Notes: a model not told the origin generated them from the letters alone. DNA of 64,000 nt from Alphaproteobacteria bacterium (GCA_963667785.2 CAXXMU010000002.1:64001-128000), one strand, 5' to 3'; counted from the first letter of the stretch, positions 8,071-30,326 are shown. Program-made: numbers and translations.

Positions 8071-8117
8071 TGGTACGCCCGCCTGGACTCGAACCAGGGA
8101 CCCTCTGATTAAAAGTC
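8071..8117 (-). repeat. att site: 47-bp duplicate of tRNA-Lys 3' half
   Basis: TGGTACGCCCGCCTGGACTCGAACCAGGGACCCTCTGATTAAAAGTC identical to 27637-27683; diverges just beyond the anticodon loop. Confidence 0.95.
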
Positions 8118-10086: not shown

Positions 10087-10803
10087 CGTGCGCAGACCGA
10101 TGTAAGACGAATGCGGTCGCCGCAGGTGTCGCAGCCAGTCATTTGCTTTGCGAAGATCATCAAGCGGCGCGGCGTTTCGTCGCGCAACGCGCGTTTACTG
10201 CGACACGATCGCCAGAGTACGGCCGAGCGGGAGGCCATTGTCCACGCTCAACAACACGCGAGCGCCGAAGGCGATGTCGGCACCGATCAGGGCAGCTTGC
10301 CGCCCGGACAGGTGAAGTTGATGGAGAGCACCTACCGCGGCGTCGTCTTGCTCGCGACCCTGAAGCGCGACGAAATGTTCCGCGACGGTCGTCACGAAGA
10401 GCACGGTCGAATGCTCGAGGACGCCAGAAAGTCGCAGTCGGAACTGTTCTCCGGCGAGTGAGCGGTCACCGATTGCCGTGCGCTTCGTCGACCGCGGCAG
10501 CAGGATGCTGCAGGACTTGCACGAAGAAGCGGCTCTGAGTATCGACCCAGCGGCGAACATCCGGACCGCGAGAGACCGCCTTGGCGGCATGCCGGGACTG
10601 TCCCACGGATTGTCGGCGTTCTCCTTCCAGCAGCCGTAAGCGGTTTGAAGCTACTTGCGTGCCGACTCGCGATAGCTCCCGGCGGGCCTGCGTTTGCCGA
10701 CGGTTAGCGGAAACCACTCTGACAGGTCTCGTAACCGAAATGCCTGCTGCTACATTCGATGCGTCCAAGCAATGGACGCAACCAACACGGCCTTCGACCA
10801 TGT

Positions 10804-12549
10804 TCATCGCACAGCAATTGAGCGTGCGAACTCGTCCGCCCCCGCGTCCGCCGCACGCCGGAAGGACTGCAACGCGTCGTCCAGCCCGTCTCCAGGGTAT
10901 CGATACTCGTCGGGTACCGAATCGTAGCGTGCCTGGGCTCGTTCAAACGAGGTCTGCCATTGGCTCGTGAATCCCTCCGTCTTCGAAACGCAACCCGAGG
11001 CCGTCTGCTGGATCATCTCCAACTCGCCCCTCAGAAAGCCCAGAAAGTCATGGATCGCGACCTGCTGACGGCTGATCTTCTCGAAGTGATAGCCCATGGC
11101 CGCCAGATAGATCGCCTCGGGAAGCATGTGGGGGTGTTTCTTGGAGACCTTGCCGATGAACTTCGAATAGGCAGGGAGCTGCCTGCGGGAGAGACGACGG
11201 CGAACGATCATGAAGGCTGCATCGATCTCGTTCCTGCTCCTGGGCTTTCGAAGATGCCGGACGGGCTTCAGGTGCCTGAACAGGGTCAGGCAGCGGCTGA
11301 AGTAATTCTCCAGGGTCGGATCGTAGAGTGTGGTTAGCACGCGTTCGTAGCCCTCGATCAAGGTGCCGTAACTCATCTCCGTCCTGAAGTTGAGTGGCAT
11401 GGCACTGGTTCCGAGTGGGGCCTCCAGCAGCCGGTTTTCCGACTTCAGGCGCTCGTACATGTCCGTGCCCTTCAAGGCGGTCAACAAATAGATGGGGGCC
11501 ACAGGAATCCCGGTCTCCTGGACAAATTTTATCTGGGCATCGAACACGCCCTCGTCATCGCTATCCAGACCCAGGATGAACCCGCCCTGGACCTGCATGC
11601 CGTGCTGCTGGATTTTTCGAATGGCGTGGAAGAGGAAGTTCTCCTGGGTTTTGCTGGTGTTTTGCTGCTTCTTGGTCTTGAGCAAGGCCTCGGGGTTGGG
11701 GGTTTCGATGCCGACGAACACGGAATCGAAGCCGGCCTCGATCATGGCATCCATCATCGCGTCCATCAGCGCCAGGTTCGCGCTCGCTTCCGTCATCAGG
11801 GTGAACGGATATCCCTTGGCCTTTTGCCACTCGGCGATCGCCGGCAGCAGGTTCAAGGCATCCCGCTTGTTGCCGATGAAGTTGTCGTCAACCAGAAAAA
11901 CCGGGCCTCGCCAGCCCAGGCGGTAGAGGGAATCAAGCTCCTCCACGACCTGTTCCGGCGACTTGGTGCGGGGCACGCGGCCGTAGAGCTTGATGATGTC
12001 GCAGAATTCGCAGTCGAATGGACATCCCCTGGAGAACTGCACGCTCATCGTGGCGTAGTTCTTCAAGTCGATGAGGTCGAAGCGGGGAACCGGCGTCCGG
12101 GTCACGTCCGGCTTCCGTGTTTCCCGCCAGAATTTCTTGGCCGTGCCGGCTTCCAGGTCCTGCAGGAAATCCGCAAAGATTTCCTCGGCCTCGTCCAGCA
12201 CGAAGTGGTCCACGCCCACGATCTCCTCGTGAAACGTGGTCGGATGAGGTCCCCCTGCAACCACCGGAACGCCTTTTCGGTTGCAACGCTCGATCACCGC
12301 GCGTAGCGACACATGTTGCGTGATCATCGTGGACGTGAACACGTAATCCGCCCACTCAAGGTCGGCGTCCTGCAAGGCGCCCACGTTCATGTCGACCACG
12401 CGGAGCGCATAGCTCGGAGGAAACAACGCGGCGATCGTCAGCAGTCCCAGGGGCGGGTGGGTCGCCTTGACCCCCGTCAGCTCCAGCGCGTGGTCGGCCC
12501 CCCAGTAGGTCGGAGGGTGTTCCGGGTAGACCAGCAGAGCGTTTGGCAC
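10804..12549 (-). CDS. B12-binding radical SAM protein (DUF4070-type; SwfC-like)
   Basis: PPLGL and GGPHPT cobalamin-binding domain; SRGCPFDCEFC CxxxCxxC; VDDNF, GIET, GFILGLD. Confidence 0.92.
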   Translation of the reverse strand: MPNALLVYPEHPPTYWGADHALELTGVKATHPPLGLLTIAALFPPSYALRVVDMNVGALQDADLEWADYVFTSTMITQHVSLRAVIERCNRKGVPVVAGGPHPTTFHEEIVGVDHFVLDEAEEIFADFLQDLEAGTAKKFWRETRKPDVTRTPVPRFDLIDLKNYATMSVQFSRGCPFDCEFCDIIKLYGRVPRTKSPEQVVEELDSLYRLGWRGPVFLVDDNFIGNKRDALNLLPAIAEWQKAKGYPFTLMTEASANLALMDAMMDAMIEAGFDSVFVGIETPNPEALLKTKKQQNTSKTQENFLFHAIRKIQQHGMQVQGGFILGLDSDDEGVFDAQIKFVQETGIPVAPIYLLTALKGTDMYERLKSENRLLEAPLGTSAMPLNFRTEMSYGTLIEGYERVLTTLYDPTLENYFSRCLTLFRHLKPVRHLRKPRSRNEIDAAFMIVRRRLSRRQLPAYSKFIGKVSKKHPHMLPEAIYLAAMGYHFEKISRQQVAIHDFLGFLRGELEMIQQTASGCVSKTEGFTSQWQTSFERAQARYDSVPDEYRYPGDGLDDALQSFRRAADAGADEFARSIAVR

Positions 12550-12869
12550 GACCGGGTTCTCCTCTCCTCCACCCTCACGTCCGGCGACCAGCTATCGCCG
12601 AGGGCATGTCTTCAGGCGACGTTGGCGAGACCATGTCCAGACTTTACGAATTGGGCCTCAGTGGAAGCCGTTCTTAGCGCTGGCAGGGCTCTCGGTACCA
12701 ACCGCCCGAGTATCGCGATTGAGCAGTCAATCCGCGAGCGAGAGGCGCCCCCTAACGCCTCTCGGAGAGCGCAAAGTAGCAGGAAAGTGTCCTTAGTGCC
12801 CTGCCGAGTACGCACAGGTATACTGAGTCCGCTCGACACACCCATCCCGTGCAACGTTCGGAACAGGCG

Positions 12870-14054
12870 ATGGCACAGGAAACGACAGAGCCCCAAGGTA
12901 GATCCGGCCGTCCCAAGTGGATGGGCTACGCGCAGCTGATCCTGATATTGGCCGCCGTCGGAGTGGCCCTCTACTTCGCACAGGCGCCGAGCCGCGTGGA
13001 GCGCGACCCGATTTCCGACATGGCGCTCGACCAGGCCAAGCCCACCGTCGCCGTGATTCAGTCGGTGCCGACCGAGCAGGCGCTGAGGGTCGACCTGACA
13101 GGAGGGGTCACGCTGCACGGAAACGTCAAGGTCACCTCCGAAGTCGGCGGCCGCGTGGTCTGGGTCTCGCCCAGTTTCCGGAACGGCGGGTCGATCGCCG
13201 CGAACGAGGCCATCATCAAGGTCGATCCGGCGGAGTACGAGCTCGAGCTCGAAGTTGCCGCCGCGAAGGTCGCAAAGGCGGATGCCCGGGTCCAGATCGA
13301 GAAGGCCAAGGCGGAGGAAAGCCTGGCCACTTTCGCACGCGAGAACCCCGGAGCCGACATTCCCGAGCGGGTGCACCGCGCGGCGTACATCGCGAAGGCG
13401 GAAGCCGTGCTCATGGAGGCGCAGGCCGAGATGAAGCTGGCGCAGCTCCGGCTCGACCGAACCGAGATATCCCTTCCGTTCGACGTCCGGGTCGCAGCGG
13501 CGGACATCGATGTCGGCCAGTTTGTCGGCCCCGCCGAGCTGGTCGGCCGTGCCTCGTCATTGGGGTCCGTCTACCGAACCGACGCGCTCCAGGTCAGAGC
13601 GCCCATCGAACAGGAGAGCTTGGCCTATCTCGCGCCGGCCATCGGTCGCTCCGCCACGGTTCGGACTGCGGCAGGAATATACGACGCCGTGGTGGAGCGC
13701 ACGTCCGCAATCATCGGCCCCAAGTCCCGTCTGGCGAGGGTCTTCCTGAAGTTCGCTGCGGCTCACCCGTCGGATACGCTGCCGATGCCCGGCTCGTTCG
13801 TGGAGGTCTCGATCGCAGGGCCTGTGCACGACAACGTGCTCGTGCTGCCGGAATCGGCCATGCAGGATCAGGGCAGCGTCTGGATTGTCGAGGGCGGCGC
13901 GCTGAAGTCCGTCACGCCGCGCACGCTGGGATACGCCGACGGCGGCGTGGTGGTGGAGGCGTTCGAGGTGGGCGAGGGCATCGTCGTCGGCTCCTTGCCG
14001 GGAGCGCGAGAGGGATTGGCCGTCGAGGTCAGCGCCGCGCAGGCGTCGGAATAG
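12870..14054 (+). CDS. RND efflux membrane fusion protein
   Basis: N-terminal TM, EVGGRV lipoyl half, coiled hairpin, ISLPFD, PGSFVEV, LPESA. Confidence 0.88.
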   Translation: MAQETTEPQGRSGRPKWMGYAQLILILAAVGVALYFAQAPSRVERDPISDMALDQAKPTVAVIQSVPTEQALRVDLTGGVTLHGNVKVTSEVGGRVVWVSPSFRNGGSIAANEAIIKVDPAEYELELEVAAAKVAKADARVQIEKAKAEESLATFARENPGADIPERVHRAAYIAKAEAVLMEAQAEMKLAQLRLDRTEISLPFDVRVAAADIDVGQFVGPAELVGRASSLGSVYRTDALQVRAPIEQESLAYLAPAIGRSATVRTAAGIYDAVVERTSAIIGPKSRLARVFLKFAAAHPSDTLPMPGSFVEVSIAGPVHDNVLVLPESAMQDQGSVWIVEGGALKSVTPRTLGYADGGVVVEAFEVGEGIVVGSLPGAREGLAVEVSAAQASE

Positions 14055-14066
14055 CGGAGTCGGGCC

Positions 14067-17000
14067 ATGAGCATGACCGACGCCGGCAGCACCAACGCCG
14101 GGCCCGCGGCGCAGCCAGGCCCGACCGGCCTCACGTCGGGGCTGATCGCCTACTTCGCCGGCAACCGCGTTGCCGCCAACCTGCTGATGATTCTGCTGAT
14201 CGTCGGCGGCGTGCTTTCGGGGCTTCAGCTCATCGTCCAGTACTACCCGGATATCGAGGCGCGGCGGGCCGCCGTTTCGGTGCTGTATCCGGGCGCCGCG
14301 CCCCAGGAAGTCGAGGAGGACATCAACCGCCGCATCGAGGAAGCCGTCGTCGGGCTGCCGGGCGTCGAGCGCGTGGTGTCGACCGCAAGCCAGAGCCTCG
14401 GCAAGGTCACGGTAGAGATGGCGACCTTCGCGGATACCGACGCCGTCTTCAACGACATTCAGAGCGCCATCGACGGCATCGAGAACTTCCCGCCGGTCAG
14501 GGCGGAGCAGCCGGACGTCAGGCTGCTCAAGATCTCCCACGAGGTCATGACGCTGGCGGTCGTCTCGTCCAGTCTTTCCGAGGACGGACTGCGCCTCGCG
14601 GCGGAAGACCTGCGCGACAGGGTGCTGGCGCTGCCGTCGGTCTCTCAGGTGGGGCTGAAAGGCACCCGGGACCGTGAGATCACGATCGAGCTGAGCGAGG
14701 AGGAGCTGCGCCGCCACGGCCTCTCCATCGGCGAAGTGTCCAGAAAGGTCAGGCGGGCGTCCCTCAACCTCACCATGGGCGAGATACGGACGGGCACCGG
14801 CAGCGTGATCCTGCAGACCGTCGCCAAGAGGAGCGTCGGCCAGGATTTCCAGGACATTCCGCTGCTCACGCATAACGATGGCACGATCATGACGCTCGGC
14901 GACGTCGCCAGGATTCGCGACGGGTTCGTGGACGAGGAGGTGGTCACCGAGGTCAACGGCCATCCGGCGGTGCTGGTTCGCATCGATGCGACCGAGGAGC
15001 AGTCCGTCGTCGAGATGGCCGAGGAGATCAGGAATCTGCTCGCGGTCTATAGCCCGCCCGAAGGCGTGAGTGTCAGTATCTGGAACGACAACGCCAGCCC
15101 CATATTCGACCGGCTGCTGGAGATCGTGAAGAACGGGGCGATCGGCACGATCCTGGTGTTCATCAGCCTCGTTCTCGTCTTCGAGCTCCGCATCGCGTTG
15201 TGGATGACCGTCGGCATCCCCTTGTCGTTCGTGGGCTCGTTGCTCTTCTTCGACGCTGCAGACCTAACGCTCAATCTCGGCACGATTTTCGGCTTCTTCC
15301 TCCTGGTGGGCATCGTCGTGGACGATTCCGTCGTGGTCGGCGAAAGCATCGCGGCGGAACGCGAGAAGGGGAAGAATGCGCTCGACGCGGCGGTCTCGGG
15401 CGCGCGGGCCATGGTGGGTCCGCTCACCATCGGCGCCGTCACGACGATTCTGGCCTTCCTGCCATTCCTCTTCATCACGTCGCCCGCGTTCCAGATCGTG
15501 AACGTGTTCCCCTATGTCGCGATCCTCGTCTTGCTCGTCTCGCTGGTTGCGGCGTTCTTCATCCTCCCGGCGCATCTCTCGCACGGGAGGCGCTGGAGCC
15601 TCTCACCGCTGAGCGACGTGCAGACCCAGGTCGGAGGATGGCTGGACGAGGTGCGCGACAGGGTCGTGGCGCCTGCAGCCTCGTGGGCCGTGCGCAACGT
15701 CTGGCTGTCGATCGTCGGCGCACTCCTCGTTCTGGTCGCTGCCGTTCTGCTCCTCGGCTCCGATGCCGTTCGGATCGTCCTCTTCGACGAGAACCTGAGC
15801 AGCACCGACAACGTGCAGGCGGACATCTATCTGCCGGTGGGTGCGCCGTTCGAGGAGACGCTGGCTGCAGCCGACCGCTTCGTCGAGGCAGCGCACAGCC
15901 TCAACGACCGGCTGGAGGGCACCCCCGTCGACGCGGTGAGCATGATCGTCGGCAACATCGAGACAGGGCGGAAAGACGGGGAGAAGCTGAACAGCAGCCA
16001 TCTCGCCTCCGTGCGGCTGCATCTCAGCGACCAGGCCGATCGCAGCGCGAGCCCGCCCGAAGTCGAGCGAGCATGGCGCGAGGCCATCGGTTCCGTGACG
16101 AACCTGGAAAAGGCCGAATTCCGCTCCGGGCGCTTTGCCGCCAGGCCGAGCGTTTCCTACTCGCTCAAGCACGACCATATGGAGACGCTGAGAAGCGCGG
16201 CCGCGGAGCTGAGGGAGGGGATGGCGACCGTGCCGGGCATCTACGGCATCCATGATGACCTGGCGCCGGGCAAGCGCCACTTCGAGATTGAGCTGACCCC
16301 GGCAGGCAAGGCCGCAGGGCTGACGCCGGCACTGATCGGGACGCAGCTGCGCTCCAGCTTCCACGGCGTGGACGTCCAGCGCATCCAGAGGGGCCGCGAG
16401 GAAATCAACGTGGTGGTCAGGTATCCGGCCGAGCGGCGGCGCAGCCTGAGCGAGCTGGCCAGCGAACGGATCCAACGGCCGGGCGGCGGCGAAATCCCGC
16501 TCTCGCTGGTGGCGACGATCACCGAGAAGCGCGAGCCGGCGACGCTGACGCGGATCGACGGCAAGCGGGCGGCGCGCGTCAACGGGCGGGCGGACACTGC
16601 GGTGATCACGCCGATTCAGGCGCGGCAGGAGGTTCGCAACCAGGTCATTCCCGACCTTCTGGAGGCGTATCCCGGCCTTGCCATCGAGGTCGAAGCCGGC
16701 GCGCGGGACGAGAGCGACATGCTCGAGACGCTGGCGGTTCTCGTCCCCATCGTCCTGATCGCGATCTACGCCCTCATCGCGGCCTTCCTGCGCAGCTACT
16801 GGAAGCCGGTGATCGCGGTCGTGGGCATTCCCATCGCGTTCGCAGGCGCGATCGTGAGCCACTGGATACTCGGCTGGGATCTGACCACCATGTCGATCTT
16901 CGGCATGATCGCCGTCGGCGGCGTGGTCGTGAACGACGCCCTCGTGCTGCTGGACCGATACAACACGATCCGGCGGGACAATGCGACGATCCCCGCCATC

Positions 17001-17222
17001 GCCGCCGCAGCGGCCGCGACACGGCAGCGCTTCCGGCCGGTGTTCCTGACCACCCTCACCACGCTGCTGGGACTCTCGCCCCTGCTCTACGAGCGCAGTG
17101 ACGAGCTGGTCGGGTTCGTGCCCTTCGTCGTCAGCATGCTGGGCGGCCTCACGTTCTCCACCCTCTCGATCCTGTTCGTGCTGCCGGCATTAGTGATGAT
17201 CGTCGCGGGTCGTCACGACTAG
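14067..17222 (+). CDS. RND transporter permease (AcrB/AcrD/AcrF family)
   Basis: 1051 aa, NRVAANLL, YPGAAPQEVE, GIVVDDSVVVGE, RFRPVFLTTLTT. Confidence 0.93.
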   Translation: MSMTDAGSTNAGPAAQPGPTGLTSGLIAYFAGNRVAANLLMILLIVGGVLSGLQLIVQYYPDIEARRAAVSVLYPGAAPQEVEEDINRRIEEAVVGLPGVERVVSTASQSLGKVTVEMATFADTDAVFNDIQSAIDGIENFPPVRAEQPDVRLLKISHEVMTLAVVSSSLSEDGLRLAAEDLRDRVLALPSVSQVGLKGTRDREITIELSEEELRRHGLSIGEVSRKVRRASLNLTMGEIRTGTGSVILQTVAKRSVGQDFQDIPLLTHNDGTIMTLGDVARIRDGFVDEEVVTEVNGHPAVLVRIDATEEQSVVEMAEEIRNLLAVYSPPEGVSVSIWNDNASPIFDRLLEIVKNGAIGTILVFISLVLVFELRIALWMTVGIPLSFVGSLLFFDAADLTLNLGTIFGFFLLVGIVVDDSVVVGESIAAEREKGKNALDAAVSGARAMVGPLTIGAVTTILAFLPFLFITSPAFQIVNVFPYVAILVLLVSLVAAFFILPAHLSHGRRWSLSPLSDVQTQVGGWLDEVRDRVVAPAASWAVRNVWLSIVGALLVLVAAVLLLGSDAVRIVLFDENLSSTDNVQADIYLPVGAPFEETLAAADRFVEAAHSLNDRLEGTPVDAVSMIVGNIETGRKDGEKLNSSHLASVRLHLSDQADRSASPPEVERAWREAIGSVTNLEKAEFRSGRFAARPSVSYSLKHDHMETLRSAAAELREGMATVPGIYGIHDDLAPGKRHFEIELTPAGKAAGLTPALIGTQLRSSFHGVDVQRIQRGREEINVVVRYPAERRRSLSELASERIQRPGGGEIPLSLVATITEKREPATLTRIDGKRAARVNGRADTAVITPIQARQEVRNQVIPDLLEAYPGLAIEVEAGARDESDMLETLAVLVPIVLIAIYALIAAFLRSYWKPVIAVVGIPIAFAGAIVSHWILGWDLTTMSIFGMIAVGGVVVNDALVLLDRYNTIRRDNATIPAIAAAAAATRQRFRPVFLTTLTTLLGLSPLLYERSDELVGFVPFVVSMLGGLTFSTLSILFVLPALVMIVAGRHD

Positions 17223-17474
17223 TCGCGTCCCGTCGTGCGATTTGCGGCGGGCAACATGGGCCGCAGAGAGTCGTTTCCCGAATCGCCCGTCGCGATCACC
17301 CTGGATGACTCCAATGTCAACCACTTGATGTCACATGACAAATCAAACACCATGCACAGTCGTCGACAACCCACCAAGTGACCTGAAGGCTATGCTATCG
17401 AGGCGCAATGGGCATGCACGCGTGTCCGGCCCGTTCGCGGCCGCTACCGCCGTGCCCGGGCTCCGAGCGACAGC

Positions 17475-20400
17475 ATGACGTCGCAGAGGAGAGAAAGCGA
17501 CGTCGCCATCGTGGGATACGGCCATCGCATGCCCGGCGGCATCCGCTCGGACTCCGATTTCTGGCGCCTACTCACCGAGCGCGAGATCGTCCAGGAGCCG
17601 GTAAGAGATCGTTACGGCAGAGGCCACCTGCCGATCGGGGAATTTTCAGGCCCGGGGCGCCTTGCCAGTCCCTGGGAAGGACTGATCCGCGACAGCGACG
17701 AGCTGCTCTTCGACCGCACGCTGTTCGGAATGTCCCACAACGAAATGATGAAGACGGAACCGCAGGTCAGGATGCTGCTGAACTGCGCGTGGGAGACGAT
17801 CGAGCATGCCGGCTGGGACTTCCATGCGCTGCGCAACAGCCCCACCGGAGTCTTCGTCGGGGCGCAGCTTCCGGCCGTGTCCAACTGGCGGCCCCTGCAT
17901 GGCGTCAACGAGTACTCCGTCACCAGCATCAGCGTGGCCATGTTGGCCAACCGGATCTCGTACCACTTCAACCTCATGGGGTCCTCGATCGCGTACTGCA
18001 CGGCCTGCTCCGCCGGGCTGAGCGCCCTGCATGCGGCGATGAACGCGCTCCTGTGCGGCGACTGCGATCAGGCGCTCGTCGGGTCCGTCACCTACTTGGG
18101 CAGCGCCAGGATGGGCAGCAGCTTCAACCTCATGGGGGTCATCAGCCCGGAAGGCAAGTGCCACTCCTTCGACGCCCAGGCCAACGGCTACATGCGTTCC
18201 GAAGGCGCCTTCGTCTTCGCGCTGAAGCCCCTGGTGGCGGCGGAGCGCGATGGGGACCCAATTCATGCCGTGATCGAGGCGAGCGCGGTCAACGCAGCCG
18301 GCGCGGCGGACGATGCCGTCGGCCTGCCCCCGGGCCGCAACATCACCGCGCCGACCCGTCACGCACAGGTCGAGCTGATGCGCACCGCAGCCGCCCGTGC
18401 CGGGCGCACTGCCGGGGAGTTCGACTACCTCGAAGCCCATGCAACGGGCACCGTGGTGGGCGATCGCATCGAAGGCAACGCCATCGCGGAAGCGTTCAGC
18501 GGCTTCGATCGCGAGGTGCCGCTTCGGGTCTCGAGCGTCAAGAGCAACGTCGGGCATATGGAAGCGGCCGCATTCCATTGCGCGATGCTGAAGGTCGTCC
18601 TGATGATGCAACGGCGCACCTTTGCGCCGACATCGAAGAATCACCTGGTGCCGAATCCCGAGATCGACTTCGACCGCTGCCCGATGCGAGTGCAGACGGA
18701 AGTCGAGCCCTTTCCCGAACATCCCGTCGTCGTCGGTATCAACTCCTTCGGCTTCGGTGGCGCCAACGGGCACTGCGTGGTGCGCGAGTACCGCCCGGCG
18801 CGTCCCCGCATCTGGTCGGTGGCCCTGGCCCCGGAGGCCGGCTACGTCGTTCCCCTGTCGGCGCGCAATGCGAAGTCGCTCGCCCGGACCGCGGGGCAGC
18901 TTCGCGAGATGCTCGACCGGCGGCCTATGGATCTCTACACGCTGGCCGGCAATCTCAGCCGCCGTCGCACCCATTTCTCCACGCGCGCCGCGCTTGCGGT
19001 GCGCGACCTGCAGGAGCTCGAAGAGGGGCTCGATGCCGTTGCGGAGGAACGCGCCCCGGTCGCGACCGTAGAGGAGGGCGAGCCGCGGCTGACGATGGTG
19101 TTCGCCGGACAGGGCACGCAGTGGGCCGGTTGCGGCCGCGCGCTCTACGGCGCCGACCCCGTGTTTCGCCGCGTCATCGACGCGATCGAGGCGCACTGGC
19201 GCGAACATTCGGACGTTTCGCTGCGCGAGGCCTGCTTCTCCGCGCCGCAGTCGGAGCTCGACGAATGCGAGTTGGCTCAGCCCGTGATCTTCATGCTCCA
19301 GTGCGCGCTCGTCGAATTGTTCAAGACCTGGGGGGTCTATCCGGACTGCGTGGTCGGCCACAGCTCCGGCGAGGTGGCCGCGGCCTACGCCTGCGGAGCG
19401 CTTTCCCTGGGAGACGCGACGCGACTGGTCTTCCATCGCGCCACGTTGCAGCAACGCACCGCCGGGTCGGGCCGGATGCTGGCGATCGGCCTTGATCGTT
19501 GCGGCGTCGAGGAGTTGCTGGACACCCTCGATGTTCCCTTCCGGCTCGATGCGAACCGACCGGTCCAGGTCGAGATCGCCTGCGAGAATGCGCCTGCCAA
19601 TACCGTCATTTGCGGCAGCGAAACCGCCTTGCAGCCTGTCATCGAGGAGCTCGACCGGCGCAACCTGCAGAATCGGCTGGTTCCCGGAAACATCGCCTTT
19701 CACTCCCGGGCGATGGACGCCATCCGGGAGGACGTGGCGGCGGCGCTGTCCTTCCTTGATGAGCGCGCCTTCGACCTCGACGTTCCCTTCGTTTCATCGG
19801 TGACCGGCTGCCTCACCGAGCGCCTCGACAGCGCGTACTGGTGGTCGAACATCCGCCAGCCCGTGCGCTTTGCCGCCGCGATGGACATCGTCAAGCGCGA
19901 CCACCGGCCGCACGCGGTGCTCGAGCTTGCGCCGCACTGCGCGCTGCAGCCCGTCATCGCCCAATGCCTGGCCGACGGTGTGTCCACCCCGACCTCGATC
20001 GCGACATTCATGCGCGACGGCGATACGCGCAACGGTTTTCTCGAATCGCTGGGGGCTTTGTTCAGAGCCGGCGTGACCCTCGACTTCGCCTCCCGGTATC
20101 CGCGCCCCGAGCCCCTCCCTCACCTGCTGCCGGGACATCCGAGGGACGAGGAGAAGAAGGCGGATACCACGGCGGACGACGAGTTCCACAATCAGGCAGC
20201 CGAGTACTCTCACGGCCCGCTCGTCGGTCACCGGATCCCGTGCGATCACCTGATGTTCGAGGCGCGTTTCTCTGACCGGGCCTTTCCGTGGGCCGCCGAC
20301 CACGTGGTCCATCACGCGGCGATCATGCCGGCGACGGGCTACATCGAGATGGTTCTCGAGGCGTTCGGCGGGGTGCCGGTGCACTTCGACGTGATCGAGT

Positions 20401-23400
20401 TTCTTCAGCCCTGCCCGGTCCCGAGAACGCCGGTGCGCCTGCAGACGGTGCTACATCCGGTCGCCAATTCCCCGTCCGAATTCACCTTCGTCATCTCCAC
20501 CCGGCCCTACGGCGGGGAAAGCAGGAGCGAGCCGCACTGTCGGGGCAAGGTGCGACTGTTGAGCGACCCGCCGGCGCCAGACACTCCGGGCAGGCTCGAG
20601 GACGTCGACCGCTCCGGCTACGCGCCAGTCGAGAACGGCTCAGGAGACGAACTCTACGAATGCTTCGAGGCAGTGCTGGGCGATACGTACCGCTACGGTC
20701 CCCACTGCAGAAACATCCGGCAGATCCAGCGCCACGTGTCGACCCGGTCCTATCTGGTCGATCTCGAAGTCGACGAAAGCCTGTGGGCCGACGGCCTAGA
20801 GGAGGGGTACGTCTGCTACCCCCCGCTGATCGACGGCGCATTTCAGGCGTTTCTCTACAGCCTGTTGGGTACGTCCGATCACCTGTGCATTCCACGGCGA
20901 ATCGAGCAAATGACGTTTCTCGGCGCGGCGGCGGGACCGCGGCTGACCTGTCTCCTGAGGGATCCTCCGGATCGCGCCCTGGATATCGACGACAAGGGCC
21001 AGTTCAGCCCTTTGGAGGGCGAGCGGCTGTCGGGCAGCATCAGCTTCTACGACCAGTCCAATGGAGCCCTCGTTGCCTACGTCCAGAAATACATCCATTT
21101 CGACTCGAACCTGAAAAGGGGGGACCTGCCCCACAGCAAGCACCGGATCGTCTGGCAGCCCAAGTTCCTGCCGAACGCCCAGGTGTTCGCCGACCGGCTG
21201 CCCGCCGGCGACATCGATCCCGTGGCGTTGATCGCCGCTCTTGAACGGCGCGTTGACGGCGAGGGCCGCGCGTGTCGCATCCTGGAGTTCGCCGGGTGCA
21301 GGGAGCCCGAGCAGACCATGCTCGAGCAGTGCGTCGGGCACCTGTCGAGTGCCGGAGGGCACGGCGAGTTCTGGCTCGTCAGCGACGATGAAGAAACCGC
21401 CGGGAATAACTACGAGGCGTTTCACGCGGCCGACGCCGCTCTGCGATTCGAATGCATCGACCCGGCCGAGCGCCAGGCGATCGGTCTCGACGAGGGTCTG
21501 CTGCGTCCGGGTGCGGTGGAGGTGCTCCTTCTGCATCGCGATACGGCCGCATTCTCCCCCGCCGACTGGGAGTTCTGGAGACGCCTGCTGGTGGCCGGAG
21601 GCCTGGCGCTGGTCTCTCACTCCGAAGGCGACGTACTCGAACCGGGCGCCGGATGGGCCGTCGTTCGCGCCGCGCCGCGCAGCACCCTGCTTCAGGCCCC
21701 GCAGTCGTGGCCGGACTCCCTGAACGCGACGGCTGTTCCGACGCCCCGTTGGGTGGTGGGTGAAGCGCACAGCCCGGCGCAGGACTGGGCCTCCCTGCTC
21801 GACGATCCGGAGGTGTACCCGATCGACTTTCAGCCCCTCGTCTGCGGTGAGGACCACGATATCGAGGAGTGGCCACGGGCGGCGGACGTGCAGGCTGTCG
21901 ACTTCTTCTGTGGTCGTGATCCGCAGGACCCCACCGGCGAGGGGGTGGTGTCGGCTCTCGTCGCCCTCGTCAGGGCACTGGTGTCGTACCGCACCGAGCA
22001 TGCGCATTCCCGGTGCCGCGTCACCGTTGTGACCCAGGGGGCCGCCTTCGATGTTCACGACCCGCGCGGGTGCGGTTTGTGGGGCGCGGTTCGCAGCATG
22101 GCGATCGAGGTGGGCGAGGACGCCGGTATCGACTTCCGTCAGGTGGATCTCGGTGCCGACGACGACCTGAAGACCCTGGCCTCGCTCGCTCGCTGCGATC
22201 TGCGCGATCGGGAGATCGCGGTGCGGGAGGGCCGCCTGTGGGTGCCCCGCATAGAGAGCATTCGTGACCATGCTCCCTGCGTCCCCGCCGGCGACGAAAC
22301 CACCTACCGCCTGTGCCTGGACAACCCGGGGCAGATCGGCGGGTTGCAGATGAAGACGTACGAACCCGCGGCGCTCGGGCCGGGCATGGTGGAGATCGAC
22401 GTGAAGGCAGCGGCGCTCAACTTCCGCGATGTCATGGTGACCTTGGGACTGCTGCCCTCGGCAGCCTACGAACGCTCCGCGCTGGGGCTGGAGGTCGGCA
22501 TGGAAGCAAGTGGAGTCGTGCGCCGGGTCGGCGAGGGTGTGGACCATTGCCTGGCCGGCGACGAGGTGGTTTTCACCAAGGGCGGGTGTATCGCCAATCG
22601 GGCAGTCGTCGACGCCCCCCTTGTGTTTTCCAAGCCCGCCCGCCTCGACATGGAGCAAGCCGCGTCTTCGCTGTCGGTCTACCTCACCGCGTACTATGCC
22701 CTTGTTCACCTGGCTCGGCTCTCCGAAGGTCAGAGTGTCCTCATTCACTCGGCCATGGGCGGCGTGGGGCAGGCCGCCATCGCGCTTGCCAGGCGCGCAG
22801 GGGCCACGATCTACGCAACGGCGGGAAGCGATGCCAAGCGCGAGCGGCTTCTCGAGCTCGGTGCGAGTGCGGCGTTCGATTCGCACAGCGAGAATTGGTA
22901 CGACGAGCTGATGGAAGCGACACGCGGCGAGGGTGTCGACGTGGTGCTGAATTCCCTCGCCGGCCGTCATCTCGCGCTGTGCCTGGAGGCTCTGCGTCCG
23001 GGCGGTTGGCATTGCGAGATTGGGAAGGTCGACATCTACTCCGACAACCCGCTAGGCCTCTACGTCTTCCGCAAGAACCTGCGCTTCGCGGCGGTCGACG
23101 TGGATCGCCTGATGGTCGATGACCCCTGGCTCCTGCGCCGACTCTCAGAGACCTGTCTCGACCTGCTCGAACGGGGCGAACTGCCGCCGTTGCCGATCAC
23201 GGTCTACGACTATGAGGACTACGCCAAGGCCCTGCGCTTGATGACCAGCGGCAAGCATCAGGGGAAGCTGGTGCTCAGGGCCCCGCCGGCCGGCGTTCAT
23301 CCGCGGTTCCCGATCGTCGATCGGCGTCCACTGCTCGACCCCGATGCGACCTACCTCGTGAGCGGCGGCCTCGGCGGATTCGGCCTGTCCCTGCTGCCCT

Positions 23401-24530
23401 ATCTCGTATCAATCGGAGCCCGCCATCTCACGTTGATGGATCGGGACCCCGAGCGCCGCCGCAACGCCGACTGGGTGAGCGAATCGACCGCGCTGCAATA
23501 CATGGACTGGGAGTGCGAGATCGACATCGTCGTTGGCGATGTCGCGATTGCGGCGGACGTTGAGCGCTGCGTCGCCTGCCTGCGCCGGCCGCTCAAGGGC
23601 GTCTTTCACTTCGCCGGTGTGCTCGATGACCGTCTGCTCGACACCATGTCGCGGGACTCCGTGGAGACGGTATTCGCTCCCAAGGCTACCGGCGCGCTGA
23701 ATCTTCACCGGGCGACCGCCGGGCATCCGCTCGACCTCTTCGTCATGGCCTCGTCCACTGCCTCAACCTTCGGCAATCCTGGACAGATCAACTACAGCGC
23801 CGCCAACGCTTACCTCGATGGCCTCGCAGTGTGGCGCCGCAGGCAGGGTTTGCCGGCGCTGTCCTACAACATTGCGGCGGTCGCCGAGGTCGGTATGGCC
23901 TCGCGAAACCACCATGTGCTGCGCATGCTGAGGATGGTCGGCATGCCCCCGGTGAGCGTTCACTTCGCAATCGCCAACCTCGACTACACGCTGCGCAGAC
24001 TGCCCGACAGCGACCACCTGGTGACCGCGCTGTTCAAGCGGGTTCCGTTGACCGTCGACTCTGCGGACTACATGCGCATCGGTCGCCTGATGAGCAACAA
24101 CGATGCGTTCCAGGGTCATTCCGACGACCGACTCACGCTCGAAACCGTGATGACGCAGATTGCCGAGAAGGTCGCCGAGCTATGCGGCCACGATGAAGGC
24201 GACATGGACGAGCCGTTGGCGAGCTTCGGATTCAATTCGATCTCCGTTGCCGAGCTCGTGGCGTATCTTCAGAATCAGTTCAACTTCCAGGTCAGCGCTC
24301 TGGAACTGATGACCACCGCCACCTGCCAGTCCTTGGCGCATGCGATCGTCCACAGAGCGGAACAGCCCGAGGAGGTGGAAGGCGAGACCGATGCGGTGGA
24401 GAGCGCGGACGCGCCTCTCTCCGGGCGGCTCCGCGGACGCCGAAGGCCGTCGGAATTCGCAAGCGTCCTGGAAGATCACTTTCCGCCAGCGCCCGGTGCG
24501 AGCCGAAACGAAATGACGACGGAGTCTTGA
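17475..24530 (+). CDS. mono-modular type I PKS/FAS, KS-AT-DH-(pseudo-MT)-ER-KR-ACP (SwfA-like)
   Basis: KS CTACSAG, EAHATGT, KSNVGH; AT GQGTQW, GHSSG, AFHS; DH HVVHHAAIMP; ER LIHSAMGGVG; KR GGLGGFG, YSAAN; ACP GFNSIS. Confidence 0.95.
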   Translation: MTSQRRESDVAIVGYGHRMPGGIRSDSDFWRLLTEREIVQEPVRDRYGRGHLPIGEFSGPGRLASPWEGLIRDSDELLFDRTLFGMSHNEMMKTEPQVRMLLNCAWETIEHAGWDFHALRNSPTGVFVGAQLPAVSNWRPLHGVNEYSVTSISVAMLANRISYHFNLMGSSIAYCTACSAGLSALHAAMNALLCGDCDQALVGSVTYLGSARMGSSFNLMGVISPEGKCHSFDAQANGYMRSEGAFVFALKPLVAAERDGDPIHAVIEASAVNAAGAADDAVGLPPGRNITAPTRHAQVELMRTAAARAGRTAGEFDYLEAHATGTVVGDRIEGNAIAEAFSGFDREVPLRVSSVKSNVGHMEAAAFHCAMLKVVLMMQRRTFAPTSKNHLVPNPEIDFDRCPMRVQTEVEPFPEHPVVVGINSFGFGGANGHCVVREYRPARPRIWSVALAPEAGYVVPLSARNAKSLARTAGQLREMLDRRPMDLYTLAGNLSRRRTHFSTRAALAVRDLQELEEGLDAVAEERAPVATVEEGEPRLTMVFAGQGTQWAGCGRALYGADPVFRRVIDAIEAHWREHSDVSLREACFSAPQSELDECELAQPVIFMLQCALVELFKTWGVYPDCVVGHSSGEVAAAYACGALSLGDATRLVFHRATLQQRTAGSGRMLAIGLDRCGVEELLDTLDVPFRLDANRPVQVEIACENAPANTVICGSETALQPVIEELDRRNLQNRLVPGNIAFHSRAMDAIREDVAAALSFLDERAFDLDVPFVSSVTGCLTERLDSAYWWSNIRQPVRFAAAMDIVKRDHRPHAVLELAPHCALQPVIAQCLADGVSTPTSIATFMRDGDTRNGFLESLGALFRAGVTLDFASRYPRPEPLPHLLPGHPRDEEKKADTTADDEFHNQAAEYSHGPLVGHRIPCDHLMFEARFSDRAFPWAADHVVHHAAIMPATGYIEMVLEAFGGVPVHFDVIEFLQPCPVPRTPVRLQTVLHPVANSPSEFTFVISTRPYGGESRSEPHCRGKVRLLSDPPAPDTPGRLEDVDRSGYAPVENGSGDELYECFEAVLGDTYRYGPHCRNIRQIQRHVSTRSYLVDLEVDESLWADGLEEGYVCYPPLIDGAFQAFLYSLLGTSDHLCIPRRIEQMTFLGAAAGPRLTCLLRDPPDRALDIDDKGQFSPLEGERLSGSISFYDQSNGALVAYVQKYIHFDSNLKRGDLPHSKHRIVWQPKFLPNAQVFADRLPAGDIDPVALIAALERRVDGEGRACRILEFAGCREPEQTMLEQCVGHLSSAGGHGEFWLVSDDEETAGNNYEAFHAADAALRFECIDPAERQAIGLDEGLLRPGAVEVLLLHRDTAAFSPADWEFWRRLLVAGGLALVSHSEGDVLEPGAGWAVVRAAPRSTLLQAPQSWPDSLNATAVPTPRWVVGEAHSPAQDWASLLDDPEVYPIDFQPLVCGEDHDIEEWPRAADVQAVDFFCGRDPQDPTGEGVVSALVALVRALVSYRTEHAHSRCRVTVVTQGAAFDVHDPRGCGLWGAVRSMAIEVGEDAGIDFRQVDLGADDDLKTLASLARCDLRDREIAVREGRLWVPRIESIRDHAPCVPAGDETTYRLCLDNPGQIGGLQMKTYEPAALGPGMVEIDVKAAALNFRDVMVTLGLLPSAAYERSALGLEVGMEASGVVRRVGEGVDHCLAGDEVVFTKGGCIANRAVVDAPLVFSKPARLDMEQAASSLSVYLTAYYALVHLARLSEGQSVLIHSAMGGVGQAAIALARRAGATIYATAGSDAKRERLLELGASAAFDSHSENWYDELMEATRGEGVDVVLNSLAGRHLALCLEALRPGGWHCEIGKVDIYSDNPLGLYVFRKNLRFAAVDVDRLMVDDPWLLRRLSETCLDLLERGELPPLPITVYDYEDYAKALRLMTSGKHQGKLVLRAPPAGVHPRFPIVDRRPLLDPDATYLVSGGLGGFGLSLLPYLVSIGARHLTLMDRDPERRRNADWVSESTALQYMDWECEIDIVVGDVAIAADVERCVACLRRPLKGVFHFAGVLDDRLLDTMSRDSVETVFAPKATGALNLHRATAGHPLDLFVMASSTASTFGNPGQINYSAANAYLDGLAVWRRRQGLPALSYNIAAVAEVGMASRNHHVLRMLRMVGMPPVSVHFAIANLDYTLRRLPDSDHLVTALFKRVPLTVDSADYMRIGRLMSNNDAFQGHSDDRLTLETVMTQIAEKVAELCGHDEGDMDEPLASFGFNSISVAELVAYLQNQFNFQVSALELMTTATCQSLAHAIVHRAEQPEEVEGETDAVESADAPLSGRLRGRRRPSEFASVLEDHFPPAPGASRNEMTTES

Positions 24531-24790
24531 CCATTCGCCAGCCCGGCCCGGATTCCATACCGACCAGGGCACCGGCACATTACAAAAAACTACATGCCTC
24601 CATGCGGCGCGTTGTCGGGAAGGTGGCACTCATGGATCGGACACGGCCTCCTCCGCAGCGTCGCACCCCTGGTTCTGCAGACCCGAGCATTCCCGGGGTG
24701 CTCGGTTTCCGATCCGCGGCCCAGCAGTCGCAGCCCGCGGCGACCGGGTGGGCTCAGGTTCGGCGCCCCCGGTAGCGAGCGAGACACGAG

Positions 24791-27286
24791 ATGGCTGAAA
24801 CACTCCCCGCTTCCCGCGTGGTGCCCTCCCTTGCTGGTCGCATGCCGATGCAGTGCCAGCGCGACCTCGACGGTTTGCGCAGTTTCATTCATTCCACCAT
24901 CGGGGAGGAATCGCCGGCCGAACCGGTATCTGCAAACGACTTCCGGGAAGTGCTGCTGACCGGCGCCACCGGGTTCGTGGGCCGCTTTCTGTTGCGCGAT
25001 CTCCTGCTGCAAGACGATAGCCTCGTCGTGCATTGCCTGGTCCGCGCGGACGGCGTCGAGCATGGCTTCGCGCGGATACGCGCCGCCCTGGAGCACGCCG
25101 AGATCTGGGACGACGCATTCGGGCCGCGCATCCGGGTCGTGGCCGGGGATATCCGCGCGCCTCGATTGGGTCTGAGCGATGCGAAATTCGACGATCTGTG
25201 CCGACGCATCGACGCGGTCTACCACCTCGCCGCCGACCTCTCCCTCGTGTCGTCCTACGCCTCGATACGCGACGTGAACGCGACCAGTCTTCGCAATGTG
25301 CTCGCGTTGTGCCTGCGAACGCGTTTCAAGCACGTCTTCTACGCTTCCACGATGGCCGTTTTCCCCGAGTACTTCTGCAATTTCTCGAACGAATTCAGTC
25401 GCAGTCGTATCGGACATCACATGCAGCCCGATCTGGCAACTATGAAGAGGCTGTTGCCGCTCGGTTTCCTTGGATACCCGTGGAGCAAGCTCGTTTCCGA
25501 GCAGGTCCTGCTCTTCGCGAACGCGGCCGGACTGCCGGTGGCGATTTTTCGCCTGCCGCAGACGGGGATGTCCAGCACAGGTTTCACGAACGCGAGCGCC
25601 GTCGCGCTCTCCATCTACCTCGCGGCGATACAGATCGAAATGGCTCCCGCCGGCTTCTCCATACAGAGCTGTGCCGAGCCGGTGGATACGCTCACCGAGA
25701 TATGCGCCGCAATCTCGGCGAATCCCGAGCGGCGGTTCACGATCTACCATTGCTGCGATCCGCAACCTCCGCATGACGATTTCGGGCCGGCCGATTTCGG
25801 ACTCTACTTGCGCGAAGTTCCATACGAGACGTTCAAGCGTGCCTGCGAGGCGCTTGGAGAGCGCTCTCCGCTGCACGGGCTGTGGACCCTGCTCGATTTC
25901 TTCGCATCGTACTGGTTCGCGGACGGCGAGGCCCGCGGCGTCGCTCCGGTCGACGATCGCGCCATTCGCGAGGACTGTCCCTTTCCTGTCCGGTGGCCGG
26001 CATTGCTCCTCCGGCATTCGCGCTCCTACGACTGGATACGGCGACAGGGCGATGGGTGGCCCTATCCGGTGCCGAAAGCCCGCCTGGACCTCGACCGCCT
26101 GATGGCGCAGGCCGAGGGTTACGCCGAACGCGTCGGCGTTCCCTTCGACCACACGTTTCCCGCGTGGATGCGTACGGGATTCCAGCGCCTTGTGGAGGTA
26201 CTCAGCGCACCACAGGCCGGATTGCTGGAGGAGAGACGCCCGCATCTCGTCTACGAACTGAACCGCCAGCTTCGCAACAATGCGGCGCTCGCCCGCGAGT
26301 GGCAGCAGCACCCCGAGATCGAGCGCGAGGAGATCGTGCGTCCGGTGTTCATCGTGGGGATCAATCGAACCGGCACCACGTTTCTGCACCGCATGATGGC
26401 GCGCGACGAAAGGTTCTGGACGCTGCGACGCTACGAGCTGTCGGAGCCGGTCCTGTCAAGCGGGGCGTACGATACCGTGGCGCGCACCGCCGGCGACCCG
26501 CGCCGACTTCACGTGAAGGAGGTGCTGGACTCCATTCGGGTCGTGGATCAGTTCGCCGAAATGCACCGCATCGACATCGACGAGCCCGAGGAGGATTTCC
26601 CGATCCTCAGGCAGTCCTTCGCATCCTGGGTCAACGCCGTCGCGTACTACGTGCCGGACTACCGCAGCTGGCTTGCCGCCACCGGTTCGGACAATGCCTA
26701 CGCCTATCACCGTCGCGTCATGCGGCACTTCACCTGGCAGCGCCGGCAGCGCGAGCGCGACGCCCGGAAGGCTTGGTTGTTCAAGATGCCCTTCCATCTC
26801 ATGGAGCTGGAGGCACTGCTCGCGAATTACCCGGATGCGGTTTTCATCCAGACCCATCGCGAGCCCACGCAGTTCATGGGATCGTGGAACAGCCTTGTGG
26901 ACCGGATACGCTCCGTCTCCATCGAGCCGCGCCCGCGGCACGACACCGGTGCCGAGCAGCTGGACCTGATGAGCGGCATGCTCAACGAGGCGATGCGGTT
27001 CCGGGCGTCGTGCCCCGAGCTCGAGGCGCGCTGGGTCGATGTGAACTACCGCGACCTGGTCGAGAACCCGATGGGGGTGGTCAGCGAAATTTACGAACGG
27101 TTCGATTGGCGGCTCGAGCCGGCGGCTACGGCCGAAATGGAGAGTTGGCTCGAACGGCAGGCGGAACAGCGTCGGCAAGAGCCGCCGCATCGATACAACC
27201 TGGAGGACTTCGGCCTCAACACAGAACGGGTCTCAGCCGCATTTGCGCCGTATCGGGAGTTCGTTGGCTCGCGGAAGATTGCGTAG
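24791..27286 (+). CDS. thioester reductase-sulfotransferase fusion (SwfB-like)
   Basis: N-terminal LLTGATGFVG and GYPWSK (extended SDR/R domain); C-terminal FIVGINRTGTTFLH PAPS-binding loop, KMP, THREP. Confidence 0.9.
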   Translation: MAETLPASRVVPSLAGRMPMQCQRDLDGLRSFIHSTIGEESPAEPVSANDFREVLLTGATGFVGRFLLRDLLLQDDSLVVHCLVRADGVEHGFARIRAALEHAEIWDDAFGPRIRVVAGDIRAPRLGLSDAKFDDLCRRIDAVYHLAADLSLVSSYASIRDVNATSLRNVLALCLRTRFKHVFYASTMAVFPEYFCNFSNEFSRSRIGHHMQPDLATMKRLLPLGFLGYPWSKLVSEQVLLFANAAGLPVAIFRLPQTGMSSTGFTNASAVALSIYLAAIQIEMAPAGFSIQSCAEPVDTLTEICAAISANPERRFTIYHCCDPQPPHDDFGPADFGLYLREVPYETFKRACEALGERSPLHGLWTLLDFFASYWFADGEARGVAPVDDRAIREDCPFPVRWPALLLRHSRSYDWIRRQGDGWPYPVPKARLDLDRLMAQAEGYAERVGVPFDHTFPAWMRTGFQRLVEVLSAPQAGLLEERRPHLVYELNRQLRNNAALAREWQQHPEIEREEIVRPVFIVGINRTGTTFLHRMMARDERFWTLRRYELSEPVLSSGAYDTVARTAGDPRRLHVKEVLDSIRVVDQFAEMHRIDIDEPEEDFPILRQSFASWVNAVAYYVPDYRSWLAATGSDNAYAYHRRVMRHFTWQRRQRERDARKAWLFKMPFHLMELEALLANYPDAVFIQTHREPTQFMGSWNSLVDRIRSVSIEPRPRHDTGAEQLDLMSGMLNEAMRFRASCPELEARWVDVNYRDLVENPMGVVSEIYERFDWRLEPAATAEMESWLERQAEQRRQEPPHRYNLEDFGLNTERVSAAFAPYREFVGSRKIA

Positions 27287-27355
27287 CCCCATGGCGTATC
27301 GATAGGAGTGGGCGCAGCCGCCGCCCACCGTTCCAGTTCTGGGGGCGATACGGCC

Positions 27356-27525
27356 ATGAGCGTCTGCCCCGGGGTAACACCCAGGATTGTCGGGGTGAAG
27401 TTCCAGGGGATCAGGTCGTCGATGCATGACATGGGGTGCATGTCGACCGACGATCCGGCGCAGGGTGTCGGCGAGATACGCCTGCGGATTGACGTCGCTG
27501 AGTTTGCAGGTGCCGATGAGGCTGG
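27356..27525 (-). pseudogene. IS66 transposase (TnpC) C-terminal remnant with degenerate right end
   Basis: SLIGTCKLSDVNPQAYLADTLRRI then, in another frame, HPMSCIDDLIPWNF; ends GGCAGACGCTCAT resembling the IS66 terminus GGACGCTTAC. Confidence 0.8.
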
Positions 27526-27636
27526 CGCTCCGCGCCGAAGGGCGGATCAGGAACAAAAGTGCAAAACCGTTCCCGAAAAAGTGTAAAACAAGATGCAGAA
27601 GTGTTGACCTATTGTTCTCTAAGTTATTGAGTTGAA

Positions 27637-27712
27637 TGGTACGCCCGCCTGGACTCGAACCAGGGACCCTCTGATTAAAAGTCAGATGCTCTACCGCCTG
27701 AGCTACGGGCGC
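27637..27712 (-). tRNA. tRNA-Lys (TTT)
   Basis: Reverse complement GCGCCCGTAGCTCAGGCGGTAGAGCATCTGACTTTTAATCAGAGGGTCCCTGGTTCGAGTCCAGGCGGGCGTACCA, 76 nt. Confidence 0.96.
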
Positions 27713-27725
27713 GCCCTGTCGCGAG

Positions 27726-27754
27726 ACGATAGGGAGGCGCCGGCGGAGGGTCAA
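27726..27754 (-). promoter_or_regulatory. sigma70 promoter of tRNA-Lys
   Basis: TTGACC-17 bp-TATCGT on the minus strand. Confidence 0.65.
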
Positions 27755-27855
27755 GCGGCCGTCCCCGCCGTATTCCCGTTTCATACCCGCCGCGTTCGCG
27801 CCGCGTCCCTGCCGCCGTTTCGGCCGCCGGGCGGGGGCTGTAGAGTGTCACCGCC

Positions 27856-29033: not shown

Positions 29034-30326
<1,293 letters not shown>

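Follow-up and report, generated by a model that had tools for sequence, protein, structure and literature searches.

The swf loci, known since 2013, rank among the biosynthetic loci found most widely in sponge microbiomes, and their product and role are still sought. They encode an iterative, fully reducing type I polyketide synthase (PKS)/fatty acid synthase (FAS), SwfA, a thioester reductase-sulfotransferase (R-ST) fusion, SwfB, and a B12-binding radical S-adenosylmethionine (rSAM) protein, SwfC. The product is called unknown in the available text of PMC3908369, PMC9426513 and PMC10227082, in line with the initial annotation of the DNA described here, which had regarded it as not established. 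In PMC3908369, SwfA is defined by its domain order, by the ketosynthase (KS) motifs DPQ(I/V)R (replacing DPQQR) and HATGT (replacing HGTGT), and by the acyltransferase (AT) motifs IAFH and GHSSGE and the AT signature QCALVEL. The window analysed here is a 64,000-nucleotide stretch of an alphaproteobacterial genome (GCA_963667785.2, CAXXMU010000002.1:64001-128000), in which a block at positions 10804-27286 holds swfA, swfB and swfC together with the genes of a resistance-nodulation-division (RND) pump and its membrane fusion protein (MFP). The reading favoured, with modest confidence, is that intact swfA, swfB and swfC and the MFP-RND pair lie on an island at a tRNA-Lys gene and would make and export an alkyl sulfate, possibly methyl-branched, whose chemistry is deduced from the genes.

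Judged by the published criteria and by its architecture, the core of the block adds one more member to the swf family already known. The block synthase has five of the five published SwfA motifs (EPQVR, HATGT, GHSSGE, QCALVEL and IAFH); the first residue of EPQVR is E instead of D, and its V fits the DPQ(I/V)R rule. Among the full-length synthases encoded beside SwfB homologues, HATGT occurs in 61/61, GHSSGE in 60/61 and IAFH in 61/61, while five plasmid-borne PKS used as outgroups have DPQ[HQ]R, HGTGT and HAFH and lack the swf motifs. The related loci come from a survey that took one genome for each species and used the R-ST protein as query; it gave 110 pattern matches, 85 of them confirmed; the best 80 were kept and represent 78 distinct loci. 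All are from metagenome-assembled genomes (MAGs), some with sponge-linked names, and their SwfB proteins are 47-95% identical to that of the block. In 71 of these loci swfB has a SwfA-like synthase gene as its neighbour, and six of the remaining seven are truncated by contig ends. Locus L049, from a Bryobacterales MAG, carries a true orphan swfB homologue, with neither a SwfA-like synthase gene nor swfC in the 10 kb to its left and right.

The KS phylogeny agrees with the motifs. The tree, a quick IQ-TREE run, has 72 rows (L027 and L067 were dropped because their matches were short, and in ten loci no KS could be reached); its five plasmid-borne outgroups include PKS of Sinorhizobium, Mesorhizobium and Burkholderia, and published SwfA and named WcbR and RkpA sequences are not among the rows. 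The block KS and 66 KS from loci with a neighbouring SwfB fall on one side of a branch labelled 100, with the five outgroups on the other, and within the former the block KS belongs to a group labelled 99 with L003, L005, L006 and L011 (Alphaproteobacteria or Paracoccaceae). In a word-index search with the KS-AT region, 3319 matches were found among 8000 scored, and the best 120 are 73-91% identical, the only name shown for them being 'SDR family NAD(P)-dependent oxidoreductase'. Motifs and KS clade together argue for membership of the swf family, so that the match to swfABC made in the initial annotation is borne out, the KS lying inside the clade of synthases that neighbour SwfB. The alphaproteobacterial setting claimed there is also supported: the genome has an alpha-type two-piece tmRNA, whose model matched only Caulobacter among 14 control genomes, and the closest swf records carry alphaproteobacterial names.

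The same single-module, fully reducing architecture would be expected of a WcbR/RkpA-type synthase making the lipid anchor of a capsular polysaccharide, and the poribacterial copy was first read in that way (PMC3908369). For the block this is very improbable and disfavoured, as none of 910 plasmid-borne PKS records found (rhizobial and Burkholderia ones included) is more than 41% identical to its KS, the outgroups lack the swf motifs and are set apart from the swf clade by the long branch labelled 100, and the island has no capsule export or glycosyltransferase genes.

Listing of open reading frames (ORFs) and a Pfam scan confirmed the five genes, with their coordinates, that the initial annotation had described: a PKS without a thioesterase (TE), an R-ST fusion, a B12-radical SAM gene and an MFP-RND pair in the orientation of the PKS. 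The gene swfA (17475-24530, plus strand) encodes 2351 amino acids (aa), with KS (17496-18635, aa 8-387; ketoacyl-synt and Ketoacyl-synt_C), AT of malonyl type by motif (19095-20075, aa 541-867; Acyl_transf_1), dehydratase (DH; 20217-20930, aa 915-1152; PKS_DH_N and PS-DH), enoylreductase (ER; 22377-23276, aa 1635-1934; ADH_N, ADH_zinc_N and ADH_zinc_N_2), ketoreductase (KR; 23346-23885, aa 1958-2137; KR 2.5e-51) and acyl carrier protein (ACP; 24156-24347, aa 2228-2291; PP-binding) domains, and the Pfam scan found no TE domain in it. It is followed, after 260 nucleotides (nt) in which no credible small ORF was seen, by swfB (24791-27286, plus strand; 831 aa), whose R domain (24956-25666, aa 56-292) matches NAD_binding_4 at 1.7e-47 and whose C-terminal domain (26342-27118, aa 518-776) matches Sulfotransfer_3 at 8.4e-34, which upholds its earlier assignment as a sulfotransferase (ST). 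Upstream lie the genes of the MFP, the periplasmic adaptor of the pump (12849-14054, plus strand; 401 aa; HlyD_3), and of the RND permease (14067-17222, plus strand; 1051 aa; ACR_tran 5e-129). Relatives of the MFP have 394 aa, and its true start may be a few codons downstream of 12849. The remaining gene, swfC (10804-12549, minus strand; 581 aa; B12-binding, Radical_SAM and DUF4070), encodes a probable C-methyltransferase; it lies upstream of the pump and outside any swfA-swfB-swfC operon. None of the five proteins reached a curated NCBIfam cut-off.

The genes look intact and functional, since the catalytic motifs of every domain match residues that are invariant across reference homologues from related loci (61 full-length PKS, 69 SwfB and 44 SwfC). 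In the KS, the Cys of TACSAG, HATGT and the His of NVGH are invariant in 61/61; the His and Pro of the DH motif H-x8-P and the catalytic Tyr of the KR are likewise conserved in 61/61, the attachment Ser of the ACP in 60/60 aligned rows, and the GGVG motif of the ER in the family alignment. The R domain retains TGxxGxxG and YxxxK, conserved in its family alignment, and the ST domain the PAPS-loop motifs (PAPS, 3'-phosphoadenosine 5'-phosphosulfate) NRTGTT and THR, conserved across the 69 homologues. The SwfC motif is CPFDCEFC, and its CX3CX2C pattern is invariant in the 44. Only one RNA-library run, X1 (labelled 'sponge metagenome', share 0.07), has sequence words in common with the region. Contigs of X1 reach 29 of 30 bins; as 334 of the 508 are only 90-95% alike, they derive mainly from relatives, and DNA carry-over is possible.

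The RND permease is of the AcrB fold family by Pfam and falls in no named RND subfamily: its best NCBIfam match, RND_permease_2, gave 374 bits against a cut-off of 1250, and all 16 listed models were under their cut-offs. The MFP came closer (RND_mfp, 89 bits; cut-off 94.9) and is kept beside every RND orthologue examined. The 78 loci come from 76 genomes, which were searched with the RND and SwfB proteins; the RND matches had a bimodal distribution, orthologues being 43-92% identical and paralogues at most 38%. In a FastTree phylogeny, 48 orthologues group in a single clade that excludes five paralogues. An orthologue is present in 39 of the 76 genomes (25/28 Pseudomonadota, 14/48 in other phyla), and in 24 genomes, from several phyla, it lies on the same contig as swfB at a distance of 15 kb or less. 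Three orientations occur, namely co-directional upstream, as in the block, divergent upstream (Bryobacterales, Terriglobia and Vicinamibacteria) and convergent downstream (several Gamma- and Alphaproteobacteria). Three genomes (G001, G003 and G029) have two swfB-pump pairs each. In G029, an Arenicellales MAG, three swfB genes and two RND orthologues occupy about 47 kb (C1:3811808-3858246; loci L031, L075, L121 and L125), with two swf clusters in tandem. Among 200 control genomes drawn evenly from the same class, the orthologue was found once (G195) and swfB not at all. Over 22 adjacent pairs, RND and KS distances are correlated (r=0.73; 0 of 2000 permutations as high).

The pump might nevertheless be an unrelated passenger on the same mobile DNA, for example one that expels solvents or drugs in general and plays no part in handling the swf product, and several observations fit this. 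The orthologue is lacking in 37 of the 76 swf genomes; in 15 of the 39 that have it, the gene lies away from swfB in the assembly, in four on the same contig at least 122 kb off and in 11 on another contig, several of these contigs being too short to tell. Eight such places with 8 kb of flank on either side keep the MFP and have no swf gene in range. G012 and G014 carry a lone MFP-RND pair 88-91% nucleotide-identical to that of the block, with flanks seen to lack swf and with the swf cluster on another contig, so that the pump genes can evidently move without swf. These pairs (L085, G012:C3, 12861-17210; L088, G014:C172, 11317-15669) lie between DDE transposase, OsmC and amidase genes. The control orthologue (L097:4934-8689) belongs to a genome without swfB, G195, and lies close to genes for a MaoC dehydratase, a fatty-acid hydroxylase and a 4HBT thioesterase, which are also lipid-related. 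The deep co-phylogeny is weak: after near-copies were thinned, the RND-KS correlation was r=0.42 (n=13; 111 of 2000 permutations as high), and for 11 non-adjacent pairs it was absent (r=0.11). Hitch-hiking alone is, however, an unlikely cause of adjacency in 24 of 76 genomes, in several phyla and three orientations, and swf-bearing Pseudomonadota have the orthologue about 100 times as often (25/28) as the class sample (1/200). Anionic detergents such as alkyl sulfates are, moreover, the kind of compound that RND pumps are known to extrude. A passenger is considered doubtful, though less so than the other rival readings, and the tie between pump and swf is read as a real, repeatedly re-formed functional linkage and not as an obligatory part of swf. 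The view taken in the initial annotation, that the exporter belongs to the cluster, thus stands as a population-level link and fails as a universal one. A literature search on sponge swf and RND pumps gave one paper, which was unrelated, and 'efflux', 'RND' and 'AcrB' are absent from the main text of PMC3908369 and PMC9426513, whose supplementary figures could show neighbours.

Other loci have other partners. In 34 of the 78, a STAS-domain protein of about 115 aa, a protein of about 94 aa without a Pfam match (s94), or both, are encoded beside swf, either immediately before swfA or, in a fused and divergent form, behind swfB; the two are fused in Acidobacteriota. Examples are L029:176-523 and L029:571-855, L007:806-1084 and, for the fused form, L034:12541-13188. 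Wherever an RND orthologue is adjacent (22 loci), these genes are missing, and no s94 homologue was found in the genome of the window. A fusion of a GTPase and adenosine 5'-phosphosulfate (APS) kinase, of the CysN/CysC type, directly follows swfB in nine of the 78 loci (L007, at 13108-14913, L008, L025, L026, L028, L041, L045, L057 and L065), which speaks for PAPS as the sulfate source. Conservation across swf loci is limited to swfA, swfB and swfC, the genes of the pump or of STAS/s94, and this PAPS-supply gene. The pump-linked architecture, the att-flanked island described below and the complementary STAS/s94 module are new relative to the literature searched, supplementary figures aside.

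The location of swf and the pump is best explained if an island of some 19.5 kb entered an alphaproteobacterial genome by horizontal transfer and was inserted where a tRNA-Lys gene has its 3' end. Between 8 and 28 kb the G+C content is 60-66%, against 69-75% in the rest of the window apart from one far-end bin at 68.8%; the contigs of the genome have 69-72%. A direct repeat of 65 nt (D1; 91% alike, with the last 47 nt exact) is present at 8053-8117 and 27619-27683 and comprises the 3' part of the tRNA-Lys gene, and its two copies delimit the island. The tRNA-Lys(UUU) gene itself (27637-27712, minus strand; ARAGORN; Rfam tRNA, 71 bits) is the integration site and right boundary, and the attL-like copy, the left boundary, lies just past the stop of a small Rieske-type ORF ending at 8008. 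Near the right end, a frameshifted remnant of the C-terminus of an IS66-family transposase was detected by six-frame reading (27428-27526, minus strand; DDE_Tnp_IS66_C 4.4e-12, above the cut-off). While the complete gene set had been recognised in the initial annotation, the displaced and inverted swfC and the tRNA-flanked mobile island had been missed.

Comparison with the closest relative, G001 (SwfB 95% identical), is consistent with mobility. The block is 91% nucleotide-identical there, the similarity spans only window positions 10860-27375 and the flanks are unrelated. In G001 a 1443-aa TrwC relaxase/helicase gene lies directly upstream of swfC (L086:8225-12556) and, some 4.4 kb past swfB, there is a gene for a tyrosine integrase that includes an Arm DNA-binding domain (L087:13489-14802), which suggests an integrative mobilisable or conjugative element; no tRNA gene was found in 35 kb around this copy. 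As swfC is co-directional with the pump in G001, the copy in the window is inverted. The relatives L005 and L006 have a tRNA-Gln gene downstream instead of tRNA-Lys. A weak hint of an island-free tRNA-Lys site comes from one X4 contig that joins 8112 to 27678, skipping 19565 bases, with a shorter side of 32 letters and 90% likeness. On the KS tree the phylum labels change 18 times, the minimum being nine, in agreement with the description of swf-like clusters as 'independent of bacterial taxonomy' (PMC9426513). An att-flanked island, together with the relaxase and integrase context of G001, offers a concrete explanation for that distribution.

The island carries one further gene, for a beta-lactamase-fold serine hydrolase or esterase-like protein (8956-10086, plus strand; Beta-lactamase 1.6e-55), whose best NCBIfam matches are LipE/LipL-type esterases, under their cut-off. 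It was rejected as a swf member, being unconserved at other swf loci (one weak match of 24%, at one locus), and is regarded as cargo. To the left of the island lie genes for an MttB-family trimethylamine methyltransferase homologue (4840-6453, minus strand), a Rieske/VanA-type oxygenase (about 6500-7643, plus strand) and the small Rieske ferredoxin-like ORF (about 7690-8008, plus strand), which look like a methylamine or aromatic demethylation neighbourhood. To the right are hisZ (27856-29031) and purA (about 29040-30329), followed by tandem amidase genes (484 and 465 aa; 30564-33429, minus strand).

As to the chemistry, the R domain of SwfB is closest among solved structures to MxaA, the terminal reductase of myxalamid synthase (4u7w, 1e-39), and a coccidian PKS thioester reductase yields a primary alcohol (bioRxiv 10.1101/2023.05.23.541938). 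The ST domain significantly matches only two solved structures, 2zq5 (1.2e-36) and 2z6v (4.9e-23), which we take to be mycobacterial Stf proteins, the record name being only 'putative uncharacterized protein'. Four other chains among the matches listed up to E = 10 are at chance level (E 0.65-1; a cullin, phage collar and portal proteins and aq_2013), and no ST of CurM or olefin synthase (OLS) type is among them. The host genome encodes a second, distant ST-domain homologue (L002, G000:C6:1063662-1064582), 29% identical to the ST half of SwfB, in an open frame of 598 aa. SwfC is 60-77% identical to rSAM proteins encoded inside 45 of the 78 swf loci and 82% identical to the G001 copy; in 38 of the 45 rSAM-bearing loci the gene lies between the synthase gene and swfB, as in the poribacterial order.

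Because SwfA is a single fully reducing module, it would act iteratively; primed in trans by one of the two phosphopantetheinyl transferases (PPTases) of the host, it would use malonyl units to build a saturated acyl-ACP. The presence of an R domain implies that SwfB would release the chain reductively, most likely in a four-electron reduction to a primary alcohol, and the presence of an ST domain that it would then transfer sulfate from PAPS, which an APS kinase of the host would help to supply, to give an alkyl sulfate, an anionic, detergent-like lipid. SwfC may add a methyl group at an unactivated carbon. The pump pair lacks an outer-membrane gene, and the MFP and RND proteins would work with a channel of TolC type, for which the genome has two genes at other places; they would take up the amphiphile in the inner membrane or periplasm and deliver it to the cell surface or medium, which would also protect the producer. 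As an alkyl sulfate is a detergent like sodium dodecyl sulfate, a linked RND pump would be chemically sensible for both delivery and self-protection. The alcohol, sulfate ester and methyl branch are all pure inference from the domains, and methylation by SwfC is a guess, since its similarity to characterised rSAM proteins is weak. The alkyl-sulfate proposal was already made by the authors of the 2013 study (PMC3908369).

Alternatively, no stable alkyl sulfate may be formed, either because the reductase stops at an aldehyde that has another use or because the sulfate serves as a leaving group, in the manner of curacin or olefin synthases, giving an alkene, an ether or another alkylated product. 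The outcome of an R domain is unpredictable from sequence, sulfation as activation has a precedent in CurM (discussed in PMC3908369), and alkyl sulfates are described as unreported as widespread sponge lipids in the available text of PMC3908369. The island, though, encodes no thioesterase, aminotransferase or other follow-up enzyme, the ST domain significantly matches 2zq5 and 2z6v and no CurM- or OLS-type ST among the solved structures listed up to E = 10, and the genes conserved across loci extend to swfABC, the pump or STAS/s94 and PAPS supply only. A product other than a stable sulfate is thought unlikely.

Returning to an exported alkyl sulfate made by SwfA, SwfB and SwfC, this reading has to be set against the patchy, separable and weakly co-diverging pump described above and against several further observations, all of which speak against it. 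When an entire swf cluster was expressed in E. coli BAP1, no new metabolite appeared (PMC3908369). Two- and four-electron reductases are indistinguishable from sequence (bioRxiv 10.1101/2023.05.23.541938). The best solved-structure match of SwfC reaches 5.8e-10, a weak similarity to characterised rSAM proteins, and swfC is missing from 33 of the 78 loci. A promoter and terminator scan of 10500-27800 gave one and nine sites against shuffle means of 2.0 and 8.8, with no signal above chance. As regards the E. coli experiment, the pump and a B12 supply were absent and PAPS was limited, any of which could explain the failure.

That a pump orthologue travels with swf in about one third of carriers points to an exported or surface amphiphile, and culture supernatant and outer-membrane fractions are therefore the places to search, by negative-mode mass spectrometry. 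The compact block of 16.5 kb (swfC, MFP, RND, swfA and swfB) is a natural cassette for expression in a related cultivable host. A wider reading, offered tentatively and thought rather improbable as a whole, is that swf is a horizontally traded symbiosis module, in which a tRNA-targeting island would spread a detergent-like sulfated lipid across at least 10 phyla of sponge-associated bacteria, each lineage using one of two mutually exclusive trafficking modules (MFP-RND mostly in Proteobacteria and some Acidobacteriota; STAS and the 94-aa protein in Nitrospirales, Latescibacterota and others), the lipid being a shared surface or signalling molecule of the holobiont.

Among described systems, the block is closest to swf itself, with which it shares the three gene products, the domain order, the KS and AT motifs and the R-ST fusion (PMC3908369). 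It is 47-70% identical to swf-type loci of other phyla, compared with more than 58% among the three examples of the paper (PMC3908369). It differs in the first residue of EPQVR, in its tRNA-Lys-flanked island and in gene order: the published orders (PMC3908369) are A-C-B, A-B-C and A-B, whereas in the block swfC lies upstream on the opposite strand, with MFP-RND between it and swfA. Coccidian FAS are reported to be the only other proteins with a contiguous R-ST (PMC3908369). In the coccidian PKS/FAS the reductase domains are C-terminal in the megasynthase, as is the R domain of MxaA, the closest solved relative, whereas the R-ST of the block is a free-standing protein that would act in trans. 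With WcbR and RkpA the block has in common a single-module KS-AT-DH-ER-KR-ACP synthase in Proteobacteria, and it differs from them in KS clade, motifs and capsule context. CurM and the olefin synthase ST-TE resemble it in placing a sulfotransferase at the end of a PKS line; unlike these, the block has no TE, and its ST belongs to a separate protein, where it is joined to a reductase. In the mycobacterial sulfolipid-1 system, the reducing PKS Pks2, the PAPS-dependent sulfotransferase Stf0 and the RND-superfamily exporter MmpL8 make and export a sulfated lipid. The block would work in a comparable manner, combining a reducing PKS, a PAPS sulfotransferase and an RND-superfamily transporter. The best NCBIfam match of SwfA is the Pks2 model, at 874 bits against a cut-off of 2400, so that it is not a member; its sulfate acceptor would be a reduced chain end and not trehalose, and its pump is an AcrB-type RND with an MFP and not an MmpL protein.

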